From a virus, in IMG/VR virus record IMGVR_UViG_3300032236_001259, positions 6,940 through 70,939 of that record: a stretch of DNA of 64,000 nucleotides, one strand, 5' to 3'. Positions 3,087 to 19,485 of the stretch are shown here, in pieces (the stretch's first letter is position 1; each line of letters opens with the position of its first letter). The position numbers were made by a program, and so were the translations under genes. The notes beneath the pieces were generated by a model that saw only the letters and a list, made by a program, of their open reading frames with translations, was not told where the DNA came from and ran no database searches.

Positions 3087-3668
3087 TTATTTTTGTATGT
3101 TCCAAATTTCAATTGGTAGATATTTTCGGCAAATGTCTGCTGTTAATTTTTGGTTTTCTTTATAAGTACTACAATAAGCAACAGCAGCATCATAAACAAT
3201 AGCACTAGCAGCAGCAGCGTCAGCAGAAGCAGCCCAAGCAGCAGCACCAGCAGCACCAGCAGCATAAGCAGCAGAATAAGCAGCAGCAGCAGCAGTAACA
3301 GCACGAGCGGCACCATTAGAAGCATAATAAGCAGCACGAGCGGCACCATCAGCAGCATCCCAAGAAGCACGACCAGCAGCACCACAAGCAGCGTCCAATT
3401 CTTCTCTACTAATCTTACCTTCTCCAAAAGCAATGGCTGCATCGACAGCTTTTAAGCTTCTTTCGTCTTTCATTAAGTGCCGAACCGTGTTAGCGCAGTG
3501 ACCTTTTGCTAAAGTTAGAAGCTGTATATCTTCGGGATTAGTTCTTTGGAATAGCCACAACGGCCAGTCACCTCTATTACAAGTAGAGTAAGCCTCCTCC
3601 CATGACTTGCCAGTTGCCCAGTATTTTGCATCTTCGCAAGCATTTAGTTTCTCTAATAGTTCTTTCAT
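3087..3668 (-). CDS. Ala-rich paralogue 1 (Imm5-like helical family)
   Basis: MKELL..L.AC.. / DERSLKAVDAAIAFGEG / Ala-rich core / NQKLTADICRKYLPIEIWN, shared by five copies. Confidence 0.75.
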   Translation of the reverse strand: MKELLEKLNACEDAKYWATGKSWEEAYSTCNRGDWPLWLFQRTNPEDIQLLTLAKGHCANTVRHLMKDERSLKAVDAAIAFGEGKISREELDAACGAAGRASWDAADGAARAAYYASNGAARAVTAAAAAYSAAYAAGAAGAAAWAASADAAAASAIVYDAAVAYCSTYKENQKLTADICRKYLPIEIWNIQK

Positions 3669-6275: not shown

Positions 6276-7235
6276 TTATTTAGCGGTTTCTAGAATATTT
6301 TCTAAAGATTTCATACCATCAGTTCCTCCGATACCTTTGCATATAGTATAGAAACTATCATACAAAGTAAAACCATCGTCAACCAATTCTGAGATCATTT
6401 TTAGATGTCTTATAGATAGATTAAAACTGATATTGAAACTATTGTGAGCTTCATTTATCTTGTTATACACATCTATCATTTTATCTAATACTACAGATAG
6501 TATATCAGGAGTATGAATTTTAATTGCTTCTTTAACCTGACTGCTTTCTAACGGATCAATCTCTATAATCATAAATCTATCCATCAAAGCGCGGTCTAAC
6601 TTGTGAGTACCAGTATACTGACCTCCAAGATTAGCAGTAGCAATGAATACACATTTCTCGTGGATCTTAATCGGAGTAACATCATCAAAGCAATATTCCA
6701 TAGGTAACTCTCTTCTAAAATCTAAGCAGGGGAATAATAAGTTATTCGCAGTGGCTGAGGCTCTAGACAATTCATCTAAAAGAATAATACCTGGTTGGGA
6801 AATAACTTCACTAAATCTGCTCTTTACAAATCTAGAAGTAGTTTTACCATCTTCCATTTTAATAACGTGTGTTCCGATCAAACTCATAATAGGATCACTC
6901 ATAGTTCCCATATCAAAGATTGTTAAAGGAAGATTAAGTTCATCGGCTACATTAGCTATCAACTCAGTCTTACCAACTCCAGTTGGTCCGAGTAATAAAG
7001 TGTTAACATTTCTCTTAATGTTACGCTCTAGTATGGCATAATTACCGGTACTAACTTTAAAATAACCATTCAAAGTTTTGAAATCTTCTTTCGTGGATAA
7101 TGAAGGCCTAGATTTCTTTCTTGGAGATACTGATTTTCTTTTTTCAGCCAAGACTCCGAATGTTTCGGAAACTTTAACGACATCTTCTTCTGATACTAAA
7201 GTGTTTAATACTTCTTTTTTTGTTGTTGCTAACAT
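6276..7235 (-). CDS. MoxR-family AAA+ ATPase (CobS/CbbQ-like)
   Basis: Walker A GPTGVGKT, Walker B ILLDELSRA, ATAN, LDRALMDRF. Confidence 0.9.
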   Translation of the reverse strand: MLATTKKEVLNTLVSEEDVVKVSETFGVLAEKRKSVSPRKKSRPSLSTKEDFKTLNGYFKVSTGNYAILERNIKRNVNTLLLGPTGVGKTELIANVADELNLPLTIFDMGTMSDPIMSLIGTHVIKMEDGKTTSRFVKSRFSEVISQPGIILLDELSRASATANNLLFPCLDFRRELPMEYCFDDVTPIKIHEKCVFIATANLGGQYTGTHKLDRALMDRFMIIEIDPLESSQVKEAIKIHTPDILSVVLDKMIDVYNKINEAHNSFNISFNLSIRHLKMISELVDDGFTLYDSFYTICKGIGGTDGMKSLENILETAK

Positions 7236-12998: not shown

Positions 12999-13014
12999 TA
13001 ATTTTTATATTAAG

Positions 13015-13102
13015 TAGTCAGGACAGGATTTGAACCTGTATATATCGTTCCTCTTTTCTGTGTTTTCTTGAGACGATAGCCGTACCATTCCGCCACCTGA
13101 CT
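13015..13102 (-). ncRNA. tRNA-like element (pseudo-tRNA with Leu-like D region)
   Basis: Acceptor AGTCAGG/CCTGACT; T arm ACAGG-TTCAAAT-CCTGT; TGGCGGAATGGTA D region; non-canonical central stem TATCGT/ACGATA. Confidence 0.7.
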
Positions 13103-13634: not shown

Positions 13635-13913
13635 TCATAAAGAAGAATTATTATTAGAATCACTATCAGAATTATTCAAAAGATCATTAGCAGTATCAAG
13701 AGCAATAAAGCTTTCCATAAATACATTACAAGCATCTAGCATATCCGCCATCGGTTCATCTACATAAGGTGCTATATAATTATCTTCATTCCATTTATGA
13801 ACACACATTATGATTCTCTTCTGAATCTCTTCAAGAGGAATATCGGAATCCTCTCTGATTATAAGTTCTAATAAACCAATAGCAAGTACTCTTTGGATTT
13901 CAATAATAGACAT
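13635..13913 (-). CDS. Hypothetical protein, paralogue of 11285-11554
   Basis: Shared QR..A..LLELI..ED / KW / L.AC..F..S pattern. Confidence 0.6.
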   Translation of the reverse strand: MSIIEIQRVLAIGLLELIIREDSDIPLEEIQKRIIMCVHKWNEDNYIAPYVDEPMADMLDACNVFMESFIALDTANDLLNNSDSDSNNNSSL

Positions 13914-14122
13914 GTTATATTGTTTTAAAGTGTGGTAAAGAAATATAAGAAAGTATATAAAGAACGTGTTTATGTATCCGTGGTGTAATAAGGGCAGCGT
14001 GGTAAAATGTGGTAAATTGTGGAATATAATGTCTGTTTGTAATAGAATGTGGTGGAGGCGAAACGAGCAACGAAGTTGCGAGTTGAGACGCTAATCTGCG
14101 TTTTACGTTCATCTTTCACAAA

Positions 14123-14138
14123 CGTTTCACGTGGAACA
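14123..14138. promoter_or_regulatory. parS-like site
   Basis: CGTTTCACGTGGAACA, one mismatch from TGTTTCACGTGGAACA. Confidence 0.6.
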
Positions 14139-14296
14139 ATTATATAATTTATATTCACAAACTATTCGTCGATAAAATTTGTTCGTTCGTCGATAAATAC
14201 GAACCGTTTTTTAATAACAAAATAGATTTTTTCAGAAACACACAGGAATGTTTGGACCGTTCTCAAACGATACAAAAACATCATAAAAACACATTT

Positions 14297-14312
14297 TGTT
14301 TAACGTGAAACT
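14297..14312. promoter_or_regulatory. Second parS-like site
   Basis: TGTTTAACGTGAAACT, two mismatches from TGTTTCACGTGAAACA. Confidence 0.45.
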
Positions 14313-14347
14313 AAAAAAGCCCGGGAATTTTGATTTATCGTTAAACA

Positions 14348-14377
14348 AAAAGCCCCGAAGTAGACACTTCAGGGCTA
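14348..14377 (-). terminator. Intrinsic terminator ending the ncRNA transcript
   Basis: AGCCCTGAAG-TGTCTA-CTTCGGGGCT-TTTT on the minus strand. Confidence 0.7.
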
Positions 14378-14400
14378 ACAATTGCTAATCCCAAAACTAG

Positions 14401-14488
14401 CAGGGAAAGCGGGATTCGAACCCGCTACCCGTTTTATATCAGTGGAGCATACCAATATATCACAAACCTCTCCTTTAGAGTTTTCCCT
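14401..14488 (-). ncRNA. tRNA-like element
   Basis: Acceptor AGGGAAA/TTTCCCT; T arm GCGGG-TTCGAAT-CCCGC; D-like CTCT-AAAGG-AGAG; elongated non-canonical anticodon arm. Confidence 0.7.
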
Positions 14489-14489
14489 T

Positions 14490-15215
14490 ACCACCCATAT
14501 TAAAAAACACTGAATAGTAAAATGTAATCATGGCAACAGTAAGTTTATTTTTAAGGTTCATCAATTCACTATCTATGGATATTATAGCAAAGCTCTCCCT
14601 TATTTATCCTTCTTACGGGAATTAACCGGTATAGCCATTTGTCCGGTTGTGTATTTGATTACATTTACATCTCTATTATTATTGCGTACATATCAGCGGA
14701 GACGTACCCGCTTAACACATTCTACATTATAGGCAGAACCCAGTCTGGTCCTATTAGAGGTAGGAAGATTTATCGCTTTACTGCTTTGCCGACTTAAAGC
14801 GTGACAAGTTACTACGGCTTTTAGAGCATCTCGCTACCACGCGAGACTCTGCAGTTTATTCCTCTGACTCTACGAATTGCTACGAAGGCTGAGACAATAT
14901 GATACTTCAAAGGACTCATTCGGATATACTAAGGCTTTGGCTTTGCTGTTGTCAGCATTACCCACACAATACCTGCCTGTTCTTCCGAGACAAATCTTCT
15001 TTTGCCCTTATACCTCTCATACCATGAAGGCACATCAAGCTCTATCCGTGAACAGTTGACGGCTACTAACAGACCCGTTATCTGGGTGTAACTTAATACA
15101 CCCCCTCACGTCCGGCTTATCGGACATCCACGCACTTGGCTGGTTTCACTTACACTCAAAGAACTGGGATGAATAACAGCAATACACGCTTATGTGTACG
15201 TCTGTAACTTATTCG
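14490..15215 (-). ncRNA. Candidate large structured ncRNA (~725 nt)
   Basis: No credible ORF, raised GC, many local and long-range helices, flanked by tRNA-like elements. Confidence 0.55.
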
Positions 15216-15262
15216 TTCTTAGCCCACGACTCGAACGTGGCGTGTCCCATCTGATGCTAAGA
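15216..15262 (-). ncRNA. Minimal tRNA-like element (acceptor stem plus T arm)
   Basis: TCTTAGC-[15 nt containing GG]-CCACG-TTCGAGT-CGTGG-GCTAAGA. Confidence 0.6.
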
Positions 15263-15294
15263 TTTGAAATATGGATACGGCGGCGGGTTAATAA

Positions 15295-15852
15295 TTAATT
15301 GTTTAATAACGCTTTTGCTTTCTTCTGCTCTATGCGGCGAACCTTCGCAGCCTCCGCGTTGAGAGCAATACGAGCCTCTAACTGCTCATTGAATACACTT
15401 GATTTTGCGTCCTCTCTAACGAAGCGTGAAGCATATCTAACATTTCTCAACTGTGCTTTAGCCTGTGCAGCTATCTGTTCAGTAGTGAATGCTGTTTGAT
15501 CTTTGAACACGCCGTTCTTATCAGTCGACTTCATAAACTCCAATGCTGCATCCTTATCAGACATAGCAAAGTTTGACATGATGGTTTCACGTATGATACC
15601 AAAATCCAATCGGAAGTTAAGAAAGTCCTGTGAACATAACTTCTTTGCCAATGCTGTTGGTAATTCAAAATCCCCGATGGTTACCTTTGGTGCATCATAC
15701 TGTGAATTCATTACACCGAATGCGAAATGTAAAACTACACCGATTGCTCTCTTTAACGTTTCACCTTCAAACGTTTCTTCTATCGGTTTAATGAATATCG
15801 CTTTCTTACTAGATGAAAAATCATTCTCAATCTTAATAGATACTGTTTTCAT
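15295..15852 (-). CDS. Hypothetical protein with basic helical C-terminus
   Basis: 185-aa ORF between the triple promoter and the ncRNA cluster. Confidence 0.65.
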   Translation of the reverse strand: MKTVSIKIENDFSSSKKAIFIKPIEETFEGETLKRAIGVVLHFAFGVMNSQYDAPKVTIGDFELPTALAKKLCSQDFLNFRLDFGIIRETIMSNFAMSDKDAALEFMKSTDKNGVFKDQTAFTTEQIAAQAKAQLRNVRYASRFVREDAKSSVFNEQLEARIALNAEAAKVRRIEQKKAKALLNN

Positions 15853-15917
15853 AACTTTAAATGGTTGTTATGCCACCGTATGCCATATTTCAAAGAACTT
15901 ATCTATACTCATGTGTT

Positions 15918-16156
15918 GTTAGGGCTTATCCTAACCGCACAACAAAGATAAAGGTACATTCTGTTAACGTGGTGTTAATTTCATTCTCACTGTTAGGGCT
16001 TATCCTAACCGCAAAACAAAGATAAGGGTACATTCTGTTAACACTATGTTAAAACCTAAAAAGAACTAAATGTTAAACAAAGGTTAAAATTTGGTAGGGG
16101 GCTTATCCCCGACCGCAAAACAAAGATAAGGGTACATTTTGTTAATAAAAAGTTAA
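15918..16156 (-). repeat. Three ~50-bp repeats, each with a Bacteroidota -7 promoter and an ATAAGC-loop hairpin
   Basis: Units at 15918, 15992 and 16097; CAAAGATA (=TATCTTTG) at 15943, 16017 and 16121. Confidence 0.8.
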
Positions 16157-16258
16157 GACTTTTTGTACCTACGAAAACCGTCGTAGGCTGGGGATAGCGC
16201 AGCTTACTCTTCCTATCGCGCCCCATTTTACAGCCATCCTCAATATATACATATATAC

Positions 16259-16330
16259 GCCCCCCGCTACGCTCCCCCACATATTCGCTCCCATACTCGC
16301 CTCCCCATACTCACCCCATACTCACCCACT
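16259..16330. repeat. C-rich low-complexity tract with CCCATACTC repeats
   Basis: CCCATACTC at 16290, 16304 and 16315 plus degenerate copies. Confidence 0.7.
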
Positions 16331-16512
16331 ACAAAGCCACACCGTGCCCCCACATTGCGATCCCCGTTTCACCTACACACTTTTTTACCTTTAAAAAGCA
16401 CAACCCCCCTATAAAAAATTTCCAAAAATTTTACGCCCCTATTGGAATATTTATAATAAATCGGTGTATACAGATCGAATTTTATATAATACAAATTATT
16501 AAAATACAGACA

Positions 16513-16881
16513 TTGAGTGATCTTTTAAGCATAGATTGGTACTATCAGTCGCCTATTGACTTGGAGCATAAACAATATGTACTATTAGGGTATTTACAGA
16601 AAGTGGACAAATCTTTCATGGAGAAGAAGCTATCTCCACATCTGATGCATCTGCATAAGATAATCTACGAGCTTAATAAGTTTGAATCTGATATTAGCTC
16701 CTTCGTAAGAGCCCTGGAAAAGAACAGATATATTCATTTCACGGATCACTCTTTAAAAGGAATCGACAACAGCCATATAGAAACTATACGGTCTGTCGTC
16801 GATTTTAGTGTTCCTCAATTGAAAACTAGGATGGACCTAGGTTATAATATCCTTACTAAGAACAATCAGTTTTTGTACTGA
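16513..16881 (+). CDS. Hypothetical protein
   Basis: 122-aa ORF with TTG start; ATATTTATA motif at 16447. Confidence 0.55.
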   Translation: MSDLLSIDWYYQSPIDLEHKQYVLLGYLQKVDKSFMEKKLSPHLMHLHKIIYELNKFESDISSFVRALEKNRYIHFTDHSLKGIDNSHIETIRSVVDFSVPQLKTRMDLGYNILTKNNQFLY

Positions 16882-17287: not shown

Positions 17288-18433
17288 CTAGTGGCTGTCG
17301 CCCACGTCTTTTTTCTCTGAATAAATACTGTAGTCGGGGTTTATTACCTTGGCTACCTTTGATCTCTCCCCGGTGTGGTGCTTGATCACTATACCCTCTT
17401 CCGGTATCTTGGTGCCTGGGATGAAGTTATTCATCACAAATATGTCCTGTATAAACTGATTCCATTCTCCATAATAGAGTACTTTCACGTAGGGTAACTC
17501 AAGGATAATCTCGATTATAATCTTAGACATCGTAGGTGCTTCGTATTCACCGTTAATTTTAACGTCAAACCCCGCAAACTTAATATCTTTCAAACCATAG
17601 TCGTAGTTTTTTTGAATGCCCGCACCGTATATCTCTCCGTATAGTATTAATCCCTGGCCGATTACGGAAACCGATTCTCTACGGACCGCTTTCCACAGCT
17701 TTTCTTCGATCTTGTATTTGTCGGCTATTTCGTACCACACATTTGTGTCGTAAAACCCCTGTGAGTCCGAGCCCTTCTCTACGTTGTGAGATCCAACCAC
17801 AAATTCGTATTCGCTCCAATACCAAGATTCGGGTAAAAAATTAAACTTCTTGCTCACAAATATTTTTATTCTGTCTAGCAAAGAGACTTTCTTCTTTTTG
17901 ACTATACCGTACCTTGCGTTGGTACCGTGGATCTTACGAGTGATCTCAACCTCGTCCTCTTCGGTAAAAATTCCTGGAACATTCTTTATGTTCGGGAATT
18001 TGTAATAGATATGGAAGTTGGGATTCTCATCGTATCGAACTTTCTTACCTGAAGCTAGCTGAATTTGTTTTGCTGGTGGCTCGTATTTGAACACGCCTAA
18101 TATATTCATCACATCGCTGCCTTCTTTTAGTTTGTTGTTATTGCCGTAACTAAAAGGGATAATCAGACACTCTGAATATACGCCTTTTAATTTTATGGTT
18201 CTAACTCTGTTACCGCTCCTTAAATAATTAGTAACGTCTAGATCTTCTGCTAGCTTTTGAGGTATGACAGCGTCAGTGGTTGCACATATAACTAAGTCTC
18301 CGGCTTGGTAATTACCCTTCTGAGTTATACAGTTCCATCCGTTGATGACTGCGAGTTCTATTTTGTCTGCACCTTCTATTGGTTTTATTTCTTTTATTTC
18401 TGCTACGAAGCAGCAACTGTTTTGATTTTCCAT
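17288..18433 (-). CDS. ATP-dependent RNA ligase, DRB0094/Rnl5 family
   Basis: N-terminal IEGADKIELA OB-like domain; motif I KIHGTN; YGEIYG, FDV, EGIVIK, KVIN. Confidence 0.85.
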   Translation of the reverse strand: MENQNSCCFVAEIKEIKPIEGADKIELAVINGWNCITQKGNYQAGDLVICATTDAVIPQKLAEDLDVTNYLRSGNRVRTIKLKGVYSECLIIPFSYGNNNKLKEGSDVMNILGVFKYEPPAKQIQLASGKKVRYDENPNFHIYYKFPNIKNVPGIFTEEDEVEITRKIHGTNARYGIVKKKKVSLLDRIKIFVSKKFNFLPESWYWSEYEFVVGSHNVEKGSDSQGFYDTNVWYEIADKYKIEEKLWKAVRRESVSVIGQGLILYGEIYGAGIQKNYDYGLKDIKFAGFDVKINGEYEAPTMSKIIIEIILELPYVKVLYYGEWNQFIQDIFVMNNFIPGTKIPEEGIVIKHHTGERSKVAKVINPDYSIYSEKKDVGDSH

Positions 18434-18496
18434 TTTTAAAAGTTTATTCTGATAATATTTGGATTGATGCCGTATTAATCTTTTTTAATTGTTTTT

Positions 18497-18898
18497 TCAC
18501 AAAGATACTTCAAAGCGATTTTTCATTTTGTATAGGGTATCTTCAGGCACTCCGTGAATATTAATACCACTGTGTCTGTTCTCTACAATGACACTGAACA
18601 CTCTGTATCCATACTGCTCTGCTAATTTGTAATAGGCTTCCATCTCCCATTCTTGTGTAAACGTATTAGATACCACGATATTAGGAATTGCTAACGAATT
18701 CATTCTTCTTTCAACTTCGTTTCTGCACCATTCGTGCGCTTGTCTTAACTTTGTAGCATCGAAATTATAGTTGCCGTCTGTGTCGTAAAAGAATTTATCC
18801 GCTTCACATATAGCGCTCTCTTCTGAGACGATGTGCGCTAATGAGCTCTTACCGCTTCCAGGCAATCCCCTCAATATTATTAAATTTTTAGTATTCAT
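18497..18898 (-). CDS. P-loop kinase (AAA_33, polynucleotide kinase-like)
   Basis: LRGLPGSGKS, EAD, VVSNT, HGVP. Confidence 0.8.
   Translation of the reverse strand: MNTKNLIILRGLPGSGKSSLAHIVSEESAICEADKFFYDTDGNYNFDATKLRQAHEWCRNEVERRMNSLAIPNIVVSNTFTQEWEMEAYYKLAEQYGYRVFSVIVENRHSGINIHGVPEDTLYKMKNRFEVSL
18500..18507 (-). promoter_or_regulatory. Bacteroidota -7 promoter element
   Basis: TATCTTTG upstream of the RNA ligase. Confidence 0.5.
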
Positions 18899-19485
18899 CG
18901 CACGTTTGTTTTTTCGTTGTGGTGATCGACAAAAGCTATTTCTCTCTTGTCTAAGATATTTTTAACTTCGGCGAATTTGAAAGGCCTATACTCTCCAAAC
19001 AATCTATATGCGTTATCCACTCCTACGTCCATGCTCTTACCCCAAGGACTATGTTCTGCAGACGCGTGAGAGTGACCGTAGAGGTGCCAATAACCTTTGT
19101 GACTGCCTTCCCATATTCTGTGAGAATAGTGCGACATGAATATGTGTTGATTTTCTACAGTTACGTTTAGCGTATCGCCTGTAAAAGTAAAGTGATCTTT
19201 GTACAATTGTTGTTTTGGATCGTGGTTACCTTTGATCCAAAATAAATTCTTACATACAATTCTCGCTCTCCAATCAGGAGTCAAATCATGTCCACCGAAA
19301 CAAAAATCACCCAAAAAGAATAAATTATCGTCCTGTCCCACCATATTATTTATATTGTTCAACAGAGTATCATTCATCTTTTGAACAGAATCAAAAGTCC
19401 TGTATCCAGACTTCCACTTGCTAGTCTTACTACTCGCAATATTAGCGTGATTTAGGTGTAGATCTGAGGTGAAAAATGTATTCAT
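18895..19485 (-). CDS. Calcineurin-like metallophosphoesterase
   Basis: SDLH, LGDF, GNHD, HLYGHSH, DVGVD. Confidence 0.9.
   Translation of the reverse strand: MNTFFTSDLHLNHANIASSKTSKWKSGYRTFDSVQKMNDTLLNNINNMVGQDDNLFFLGDFCFGGHDLTPDWRARIVCKNLFWIKGNHDPKQQLYKDHFTFTGDTLNVTVENQHIFMSHYSHRIWEGSHKGYWHLYGHSHASAEHSPWGKSMDVGVDNAYRLFGEYRPFKFAEVKNILDKREIAFVDHHNEKTNVR

Follow-up and report, generated by a model that had tools for sequence, protein, structure and literature searches.

Among hairpin loops of six nucleotides, those of 16S rRNA (UUAAGU, UUAAAU, UCAAUU and others) place their penultimate base outside the helix, and hexaloops of the same class make loop–loop tertiary contacts in natural hammerheads, as set out in the passages of PMC2632901 that deal with them. 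The hexaloop UUUAAU of the neomycin riboswitch, in the corresponding part of PMC4105743, pairs U1 with U6, makes its U-turn at U2-U3-A4, loops out A5 and tolerates C at position 2. At a larger scale, part of PMC12286853 describes GOLLD and ROOL as phage or prophage RNAs that lie near tRNA islands and self-assemble through kissing loops and A-minor contacts. Here we compare with these systems a cassette on the minus strand of a 70,939-nucleotide (nt) virus record of 31% G+C (IMG/VR IMGVR_UViG_3300032236_001259, described as a freshwater phage), of which 64 kb (record positions 6,940 to 70,939) form the window, the stretch to which all coordinates below refer unless otherwise stated. The cassette comprises tandem promoters with leader hairpins, a gene for an orphan basic protein of 185 amino acids (aa; 15295–15852, isoelectric point (pI) 9.3, taken from the list of open reading frames (ORFs)) and an ORF-free stretch of ~730 nt (14489–15216), which appears as a large conserved structured noncoding RNA (ncRNA).

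Hexaloop hairpins in the leaders and the ncRNA

An exact scan of the whole genome returned five hairpins of the form stem-ATAAGC-stem, all on the minus strand and all inside 15110–16110, and a UUAAGU variant adjoins them within the cassette. ATAAGC itself occurs 26 times on the minus strand of the 70,939-nt genome, with at least four Watson–Crick flanking pairs in five of these copies, compared with 0 of 36 copies on the plus strand. A sequence-only reading of this DNA had listed these six hairpins and had proposed a genome-wide scan against a shuffled background, naming a frequency equal to random expectation as grounds for giving the motif up. All six were recovered on the minus strand, each in its listed place, and against the five stem-ATAAGC-stem hairpins observed, 200 dinucleotide-preserving shuffles scanned on both strands averaged 0.415 and never exceeded three. 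The hairpins are non-random and strand-specific. A degenerate-loop scan (loop WTWRRY, stem of at least five pairs with at least two G-C) yielded 14 genome matches, compared with 4.0 ± 2.0 in shuffled sequence (maximum 11); five of the 14 lie inside the locus, and the other nine, scattered and mostly intragenic, are taken as background. Separately, two identical plus-strand hairpins, ACTGT-ATTAGC-ACAGT, occur at record positions 721–736 and 3093–3108 (window −6218 and −3846), spaced 2.4 kb apart upstream of the window, which suggests a repeated element.

Three of the cassette hairpins belong to three tandem promoters of the form TTAACA-N11-TATCTTTG, one hairpin following each. Promoter repeat A (16095–16156) has TTAACA, a −7 box TATCTTTG at 16128–16121 and the hairpin GGUcGGGG-AUAAGC-CCCCuACC at 16114–16093, the core of which (GGGG-ATAAGC-CCCC, 16110–16097) came from the exact scan. 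Repeats B (15991–16052) and C (15917–15978) each contain TTAACA-N5-TTAACA, followed by TATCTTTG at 16024–16017 and 15950–15943 and by the hairpin GUUAGG-AUAAGC-CCUAAC at 16009–15992 and 15935–15918 respectively. The pattern TTAACA-N(9–14)-TAnnTTTG has three copies in the genome, every one of them in this locus. A TAnnTTTG −7 box typifies promoters of the main sigma factor in Bacteroidota, and its presence here, the sole clue to the host, presumably points to one of Bacteroidota type. The leader copies are 62-nt tandem repeats, each with TTAACA site, −7 box and hairpin, that are 100, 90 and 68% identical; in copy A the stem is rebuilt and the loop unchanged. The earlier suggestion that these hairpins would be the first structure transcribed is consistent with this layout, because each TATCTTTG box ends 7–13 nt before its hairpin in all three leaders, the start site itself being a predicted rather than a mapped one.

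The remaining hairpins are HP1 (UACAC-AUAAGC-GUGUA, 15183–15198), HP2 (GUCCG-AUAAGC-CGGAC, 15110–15125) and HP3 (GGGUGUA-UUAAGU-UACACCC, 15084–15103) of the ncRNA, the last of which is helix 10 of its consensus structure, with three compensatory pairs. Since the leader copies are tandem repeats, two of them with the same stem, four different stems remain under one loop, and AUAAGC is found on at least three unrelated stems in the window lineage. The claim of an identical loop over four different stems therefore stands once the duplicates B and C are counted as one stem, and what had been called covariation within one genome is the ordinary mark of a hairpin selected for its loop, not its stem.

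Among 491 pattern matches, seven metagenome contigs have a homologue of the 185-aa protein, and their alignment with the window allowed loops to be compared across lineages. The window has AUAAGC in its three leaders, HP1 and HP2, and UUAAGU in HP3. Contigs L001 and L003 have UUUAGU in the leader and HP2 and UUUGGU in HP1 and HP3; L004 and L005 have UUUGGU in the leader, HP1 and HP3 and UUUAGU in HP2; and L006 and L007 have UUAAAU in the leader, UCAAAU in HP1 and UUAAGU in HP2 and HP3. Every lineage has a hexaloop hairpin after one or more of its promoter leaders. Stems differ by lineage around a 6-nt loop that is kept, both in HP1 (UACAC/GUGUA, UCCG/CGGA, CUACG/CGUAG) and in HP3 (GGGUGUA/UACACCC, AUCCUA/UAGGGU, UCAGCCUA/UAGGUUGA). 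Some pairs in the relatives' stems are G-U; because these would read as A-C mismatches on the opposite strand, they favour RNA on this strand. The mean Hamming distance between loops is 0.89 within a genome compared with 2.67 at the same position between genomes, and permutations as tight as observed number 2 of 216 for three lineages and, when the fourth is added, 16 of 13,824. These relatives thus bear out the link that the sequence-only reading drew between leaders and ncRNA and run counter to the lack of conservation that it had named as refuting the motif: hexaloop hairpins are kept at both sites, the loop sequence shifting jointly in each genome. Its observation that stems vary under a constant loop also holds, the hairpins being RNA-level and on the transcribed strand.

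The loops follow the consensus W-U-W-R-R-Y. AUAAGC, UUAAGU, UUUGGU, UUUAGU and UUAAAU have the U2 and R4 called for by the U-turn hexaloop rule (six nucleotides, UNR at positions 2–4), and UCAAAU has C2, a tolerated variant; positions 1 and 6 occur in U..U or A..C combinations only, and position 5 is always a purine. One such loop, r(UUAAGU), was reportedly the subject of a nuclear magnetic resonance study in 2001. At the level of sequence the loops fit the U-turn hexaloop class, their three-dimensional fold being a prediction, so that the 'identical loop' noted earlier would be a known structural module. They share with the 16S and neomycin hexaloops their six nucleotides, a possible non-canonical 1–6 pair and UNR at 2–4, here with a purine at 5, and the exact 16S loop UUAAGU occurs in HP3 of the window as well as in both HP2 and HP3 of L006 and L007; AUAAGC and UUUGGU are not among the loops listed for the class in the relevant parts of PMC2632901 and PMC4105743. 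Unlike in that class, a single transcript here has four to six copies of the loop, whose sequence depends on the lineage.

A large conserved RNA between tRNA-like elements

Downstream of the protein gene no frame is open from 15294 to ~14380, TAA, TAG and TGA occurring in every one of the six frames, which ruled out a coding reading of the ncRNA; the G+C content of this stretch is ~0.45, compared with 0.31 for the genome. Its most conserved core (14822–14534) has 74–76% nucleotide identity over ~290 nt in all six loci that reach that far (blastn), where the encoded proteins are only 45–50% identical. An RNAalifold consensus for the seven-sequence alignment, which represents four lineages only, contains 230 pairs, 54 of them changed on both sides, compared with 12.5 ± 2.9 in shuffles, none of 500 of which reached 54; 94.0% of cells are paired as against 89.2% after shuffling. 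Rfam gave no match at the gathering score for the window, at E up to 10 for 13900–16600 or at E up to 0.1 for the seven relatives, and a plus-strand match to the aspC motif (32 bits against a gathering score of 100) was disregarded. Our literature search found no description of the RNA or the cassette, and the 2023 catalogue of 10,006 viral candidate RNAs in PMC10690425, represented in that search by part of its content, might hold the RNA. We suggest that this is a previously undescribed large folded phage RNA, unrelated to GOLLD and ROOL. A strong intrinsic terminator, made up of an 11-bp stem plus a U tract, lies beyond it at 14341–14376 (14376–14351 as delimited in the cassette layout).

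The RNA is bracketed by two tRNA-like elements. Element 1 (15217–15262), the first 46 nt after the ORF, has a closing stem UCUUAGC/GCUAAGA that encloses a T-arm mimic, CCACG-UUCGAGU-CGUGG (15240–15224); HP1–HP3 directly follow this bracket, in the 5′ domain of the RNA. Relatives build the same three-way element from other sequence, the segment in L003 being wholly replaced. Element 2 (14402–14488) is cloverleaf-like, with an acceptor stem AGGGAA(A)/UUUCCCU, a perfect T-arm (GCGGG-UUCGAAU-CCCGC, 14425–14409), a D-like arm of 4 bp and an anticodon-like arm that exceeds the usual length, and has in relatives a shorter counterpart of 64–72 nt with a 3-nt anticodon-like loop. Compensatory changes in these elements fall in helices 1–3, which make up element 1 with two compensatory pairs each, and in helices 37–39. 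In both elements a 5-bp stem with a 7-nt loop U[UG]CRANN is stacked on an acceptor-like closing stem, and a genome-wide search for hairpins of T-arm type (5 bp, three or more of them G-C, loop U[UG]CRANN) returned exactly three, namely the two brackets and a real tRNA-Ser. Neither element was called a tRNA by ARAGORN or the Rfam tRNA model, which called only the tRNA-Ser here and made no tRNA call in the relatives, and the Rfam tmRNA model touches only the T-arm at 14409–14425. By analogy with other tRNA mimics, RNase P and RNase Z probably cut at the brackets and release the ~730-nt RNA from the mRNA. Relative to the sequence-only reading, the brackets, the probable membership of the loop in a known class and the identification of its 'ncRNA' as a large conserved structured RNA are new.

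Several observations concern these elements and the RNA in their own right. The tRNA-Ser (13014–13102, minus strand, 89 nt; Rfam tRNA 48 bits) has the ARAGORN anticodon AGA, the wobble A of which is unusual among bacterial tRNAs for serine. L004 (1717–1840) and L005 have ~124 nt inserted precisely into the anticodon-like loop of element 2, with a TAACA duplication at the flanks; TTAACA likewise forms the direct repeat ahead of each cassette promoter. A second motif common to leader and ncRNA is the 9-mer GUUCUUUGA, whose only minus-strand genome copies are in the 5′ untranslated region (UTR; 15898–15890, ~46 nt before the start codon) and in the ncRNA (15164–15156), where it opens a 21-nt invariant block; this pairing of UTR and ncRNA copies is also present in L001–L005, and L006 and L007 have a one-base UTR variant. 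When IMG/VR was scanned with four invariant ncRNA motifs, two were without match and the contigs found with the other two (L008–L013) proved on blastn, nhmmer and inspection to be coding sequence or unrelated DNA. Three of these contigs (L008–L010; 7–150 kb, apparently a large virus) have ~58 nt in common, at 79% identity, that resemble the ncRNA segment AGCCRUAAUA...GAGUAAAGCGAUAAAUCUUC; the stretch lies between or under ORFs and the resemblance is probably due to chance, a distant module being the less likely alternative. Finally, a sample that is possibly the source of the phage contains a 1,084-nt contig with a diverged second copy of the ncRNA, which matches window 14688–14819 and 15144–15162 with 12 other letters and 6 gaps over 132 nt, and related phages therefore co-occur there. 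From three DNA sequencing runs came short pieces of the locus that do not reach the hairpins, and no RNA run was found to contain it.

The protein gene and the cassette as a unit

The 185-aa protein has five close homologues; a search among 1.84 billion representatives identified 31 clusters, which are ~180–240 aa long save for a few repeat-protein or fragment matches, and the family is basic, with a pI of ~9–9.7 in 31 of 32 members. The AF2 model of the protein (predicted local distance difference test, pLDDT, 86) has an N-terminal β-β-α-β unit and a long C-terminal helical hairpin. The protein belongs to no Pfam or PHROG family, and Pfam scans of 31 family members revealed no family in common. 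Structural comparison likewise found no matching fold: Foldseek searches with the model found nothing at E ≤ 0.001 in PDB or BFVD, a wide VIA-align search gave a best Z of 5.1 to generic helices, and the ESM Atlas had no usable match. No match to the protein was found in GenBank phages and no relatives in IMG/VR, and a 27-residue match in a Treponema metagenome-assembled genome (L014), the sole one in the genome-contig search, was treated as spurious.

As far as each contig reaches, all seven keep the same layout, consisting of an upstream block, tandem TTAACA/TAnCTTTG promoters, the gene and then an ORF-free stretch, in which the relatives have no ORF of at least 60 aa (ATG start) for ~880–1130 nt after the gene. 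Flanking genes vary between contigs: a 74-aa gene that lies 3′ of the RNA in the relatives sits ~6.8 kb further away here, and tblastn found no counterpart in this genome for the genes upstream in L001 and L005. Since the layout is kept and the flanking genes differ, the cassette is a unit, in which protein gene and RNA travel together. At the DNA level the locus has no match in GenBank phages.

The conserved upstream block (16139–16258) comprises an AT-rich stretch, a segment containing UAAGC and the hairpin CCUACGA-CGGUUU-UCGUAGG (16187–16168), and has 74–78% identity to L001, L004, L005 and L007 (blastn). The AT-rich stretch TATATATGTATATAT (16243–16258), which is kept in relatives, lies beside G-rich 11-nt tandem repeats (16280–16327), and the region 16139–16327 could be origin-like or regulatory, or another RNA. 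Some 1.2 kb upstream of the cassette lies a putative RNA-repair set (minus strand, 17288–19485) made up of an RNA ligase with a PHA02142 OB-fold (17288–18433), an AAA_33 kinase-like protein (18497–18898) and a metallophosphoesterase (18895–19485). The relatives of the ligase in GenBank phages are only 25–28% identical to it. We rejected a link between this set and the cassette, as ligase, kinase and phosphatase are upstream only in this phage and not in L001 or L005.

Candidate partners and known systems

Tentatively, and with somewhat less than even confidence, we read the hairpins as recognition knobs that all serve a single partner, which would co-evolve with each lineage. The likeliest such partner is the 185-aa protein encoded alongside them, which is basic and travels with the RNA and which the sequence-only reading had also named as a candidate. 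A single transcript of ~1.7 kb would start from the three tandem host-type promoters and, because there are three of them, carry one to three knobs at its 5′ end; it would encode the basic 185-aa protein and continue into the ~730-nt structured RNA with three knobs in its 5′ domain, which the tRNA-like brackets would let RNase P and RNase Z excise. The released RNA, with three sites, and the mRNA leader, with one to three, would then bind the same factor, which would yield a ribonucleoprotein and also tie the RNA to its own operon by titration or feedback. In this scheme the transcription starts, the processing, the identity of the partner and the regulatory outcome are all what we infer. One partner is favoured because the loops change in concert, which a stable cap alone need not do, and a protein or trans-acting partner is favoured because no site in the transcript, in the window or among the alignment columns, is complementary to the loops and changes with them. 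A broader proposal, which we regard as doubtful, is that of a new RNA class: a large ornate RNA, excised by two flanking tRNA mimics, that would form a particle with the protein or with its own copies through lineage-coded hexaloop contacts and, because the same hexaloops stand at the start of its own mRNA, would sense or control its own production.

Several points weigh against a shared partner of this kind. The U-turn hexaloop is a common stable cap and an RNA–RNA docking module, for neither of which a protein is required; the 185-aa protein has no recognisable RNA-binding domain or fold in family and structure searches, and its basic charge is weak evidence of RNA binding. The loops come from four lineages only, effectively three, with two close, and were assigned by visual reading of the alignments and the RNAfold output. 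For the L002–L005 group HP2 is ambiguous, as it folds with a loop of 8 nt; among relatives, several leader stems are just 3 bp and some second-promoter leaders have loops of 8–9 nt. As to the fold of the RNA, sliding the partners by 1–3 columns left 9–17 both-side-changed pairs compared with the 54 observed, a control biased in favour of the consensus structure, which was derived from the same alignment that was used for the pair counts.

The main rival, a serious if unlikely one, requires RNA only: the hexaloops would be tertiary or quaternary contact modules that dock into receptors within the same RNA or in other copies, thereby aiding its folding or its assembly into an oligomer as with GOLLD and ROOL, and the leader would dock the mRNA 5′ end to the same receptor. 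It gains from the nature of the RNA, which is large, phage-encoded, near tRNA-like elements and a tRNA gene, and extremely conserved in its core, as well as from the concert of loops within a genome, which fits a shared receptor. The kissing loops and A-minor contacts by which GOLLD and ROOL self-assemble (part of PMC12286853) and the loop–loop contacts that hexaloops of this class make in hammerheads (PMC2632901, in the passages cited above) are precedents; nonetheless, the window transcript has no Watson–Crick complement of the loops, and no alignment column has a complement that changes with them. Docking into receptors of non-Watson–Crick type would account equally for the concerted loops. 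Alternatively, there may be no shared partner, the loops being a favoured stable cap, with leaders that shield the mRNA 5′ end from 5′-end-dependent RNases, ncRNA hairpins that are peripheral and a similarity due to chance or local mutational history. UUAAGU-type hexaloops are recurrent and well ordered in rRNA, according to part of PMC2632901, the predicted transcripts open with the leader hairpins, the three copies of which duplicate one another in tandem, and the lineages are few. We nevertheless find this account distinctly unlikely, for AUAAGC on at least three unrelated window stems, against UUUGGU or UUAAGU in relatives, would need repeated double substitutions to the same sequence. A signal at the DNA level (cruciform or single-stranded DNA hairpins for replication, packaging or a hairpin-promoter polymerase) is hardly credible. 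Inverted repeats do lie near the AT-rich stretch and the G-rich 11-nt repeats at 16243–16327, but every copy is co-oriented with the gene, the asymmetric loop and not the arms is conserved, and three copies lie within covarying RNA structure; the DNA hairpin signal that the sequence-only reading had entertained is likewise opposed by the confinement of the hairpins to one strand and by G-U pairing in the stems of relatives. Pairing of the loops with a trans RNA, such as host tRNA anticodon loops, is very improbable. U-turn loops present positions 3–5 for fast pairing, as in the YUNR motif of antisense RNAs, and UUAAG and UUUGG (loop positions 1–5) complement CUUAA and CCAAA, which we take to be anticodon-loop positions 34–38 of tRNA-Lys(CUU) and tRNA-Trp(CCA). 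The tRNA-like elements around the cassette and the ligase, kinase and phosphatase set 1.2 kb upstream are in keeping with such pairing, but the complementarity presupposes these anticodon-loop sequences, AUAAGC, the main loop of the window, fits worse, and the RNA-repair genes are not beside the cassette in L001 or L005.

We also consider it improbable that the hairpins serve processive antitermination or attenuation, whereby leaders would load a factor (lambda N/boxB or HK022 put-like) or stabilise an anti-terminator (ANTAR-like), transcription would continue through the ORF, the structured RNA and a terminator-like hairpin known from relatives, and the ncRNA would titrate the factor as EutX does EutV. 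The position of the hairpins directly after promoters would suit it, as would that hairpin, which in relatives stands with a U-run before tRNA-like element 2. BoxB is a GNRA-like pentaloop paired with boxA. As with lambda N and boxB, there is a hairpin just after early promoters, a loop kept over varying stems and a small basic phage protein nearby; unlike boxB, the loops are hexaloops, none of them GNRA-like, copies are also found inside the structured RNA, and no boxA was seen. BoxB-like antitermination, as the sequence-only reading had it, is thus not supported by a 6-nt loop of U-turn type with no boxA seen and no terminator positioned to be overridden: none overlaps any leader hairpin, and no terminator-like site was found at the leaders or at HP2 and HP3. 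Part of PMC8934654 offers a precedent in ANTAR (EutV) and the EutX/Rli55 sponge, where, as here, hexaloops on variable stems occur in mRNA leaders and in a separate RNA with the same motif, and the tandem pair HP2 and HP3, 6 nt apart, resembles the dual hexaloops of ANTAR. However, the A1/G4 loop rule given there does not hold, the window having A1 with A4 and the relatives U1, and the ANTAR domain PF03861 was not found in six frames of the 70.9-kb record, which is possibly incomplete, at E up to 1. The earlier idea of a sponge fails in this leader-plus-sponge form for both reasons. A sponge of the CsrA/RsmA type was also rejected: CsrA/RsmA sites have GGA in hairpin loops, and no loop here contains GGA.

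Turning back to the shared partner and the RNA that would carry its sites, the brackets resemble the mascRNA of MALAT1, the t-elements of plant mitochondria and mitochondrial tRNA punctuation, where, as here, acceptor and T-arm mimics flank a long non-coding RNA. In those systems cleavage by RNase P or RNase Z defines the RNA ends. The present elements differ in belonging to a phage of a Bacteroidota-type host and in failing tRNA detection, and their cleavage is a prediction. The other resemblance is to GOLLD and ROOL, which part of PMC12286853 describes as, like this RNA, phage-encoded, several hundred nucleotides long, elaborately structured and near tRNA or tRNA-like genes. Unlike GOLLD, ROOL and OLE, this RNA matches no Rfam model even at E up to 10; unlike GOLLD and ROOL, it follows a conserved protein gene towards the 3′ end of an mRNA, and tRNA mimics bracket it in place of real tRNA arrays. 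GOLLD/ROOL-like phage RNAs are among the least understood, and the cassette adds to them an apparently unrelated example with handles of its own, namely a protein gene that always accompanies the RNA, brackets that suggest a release route and a loop that changes jointly in leader and RNA. If the hairpins do serve one shared partner, a U-turn hexaloop of the 16S type would have been reused here as a programmable recognition element.

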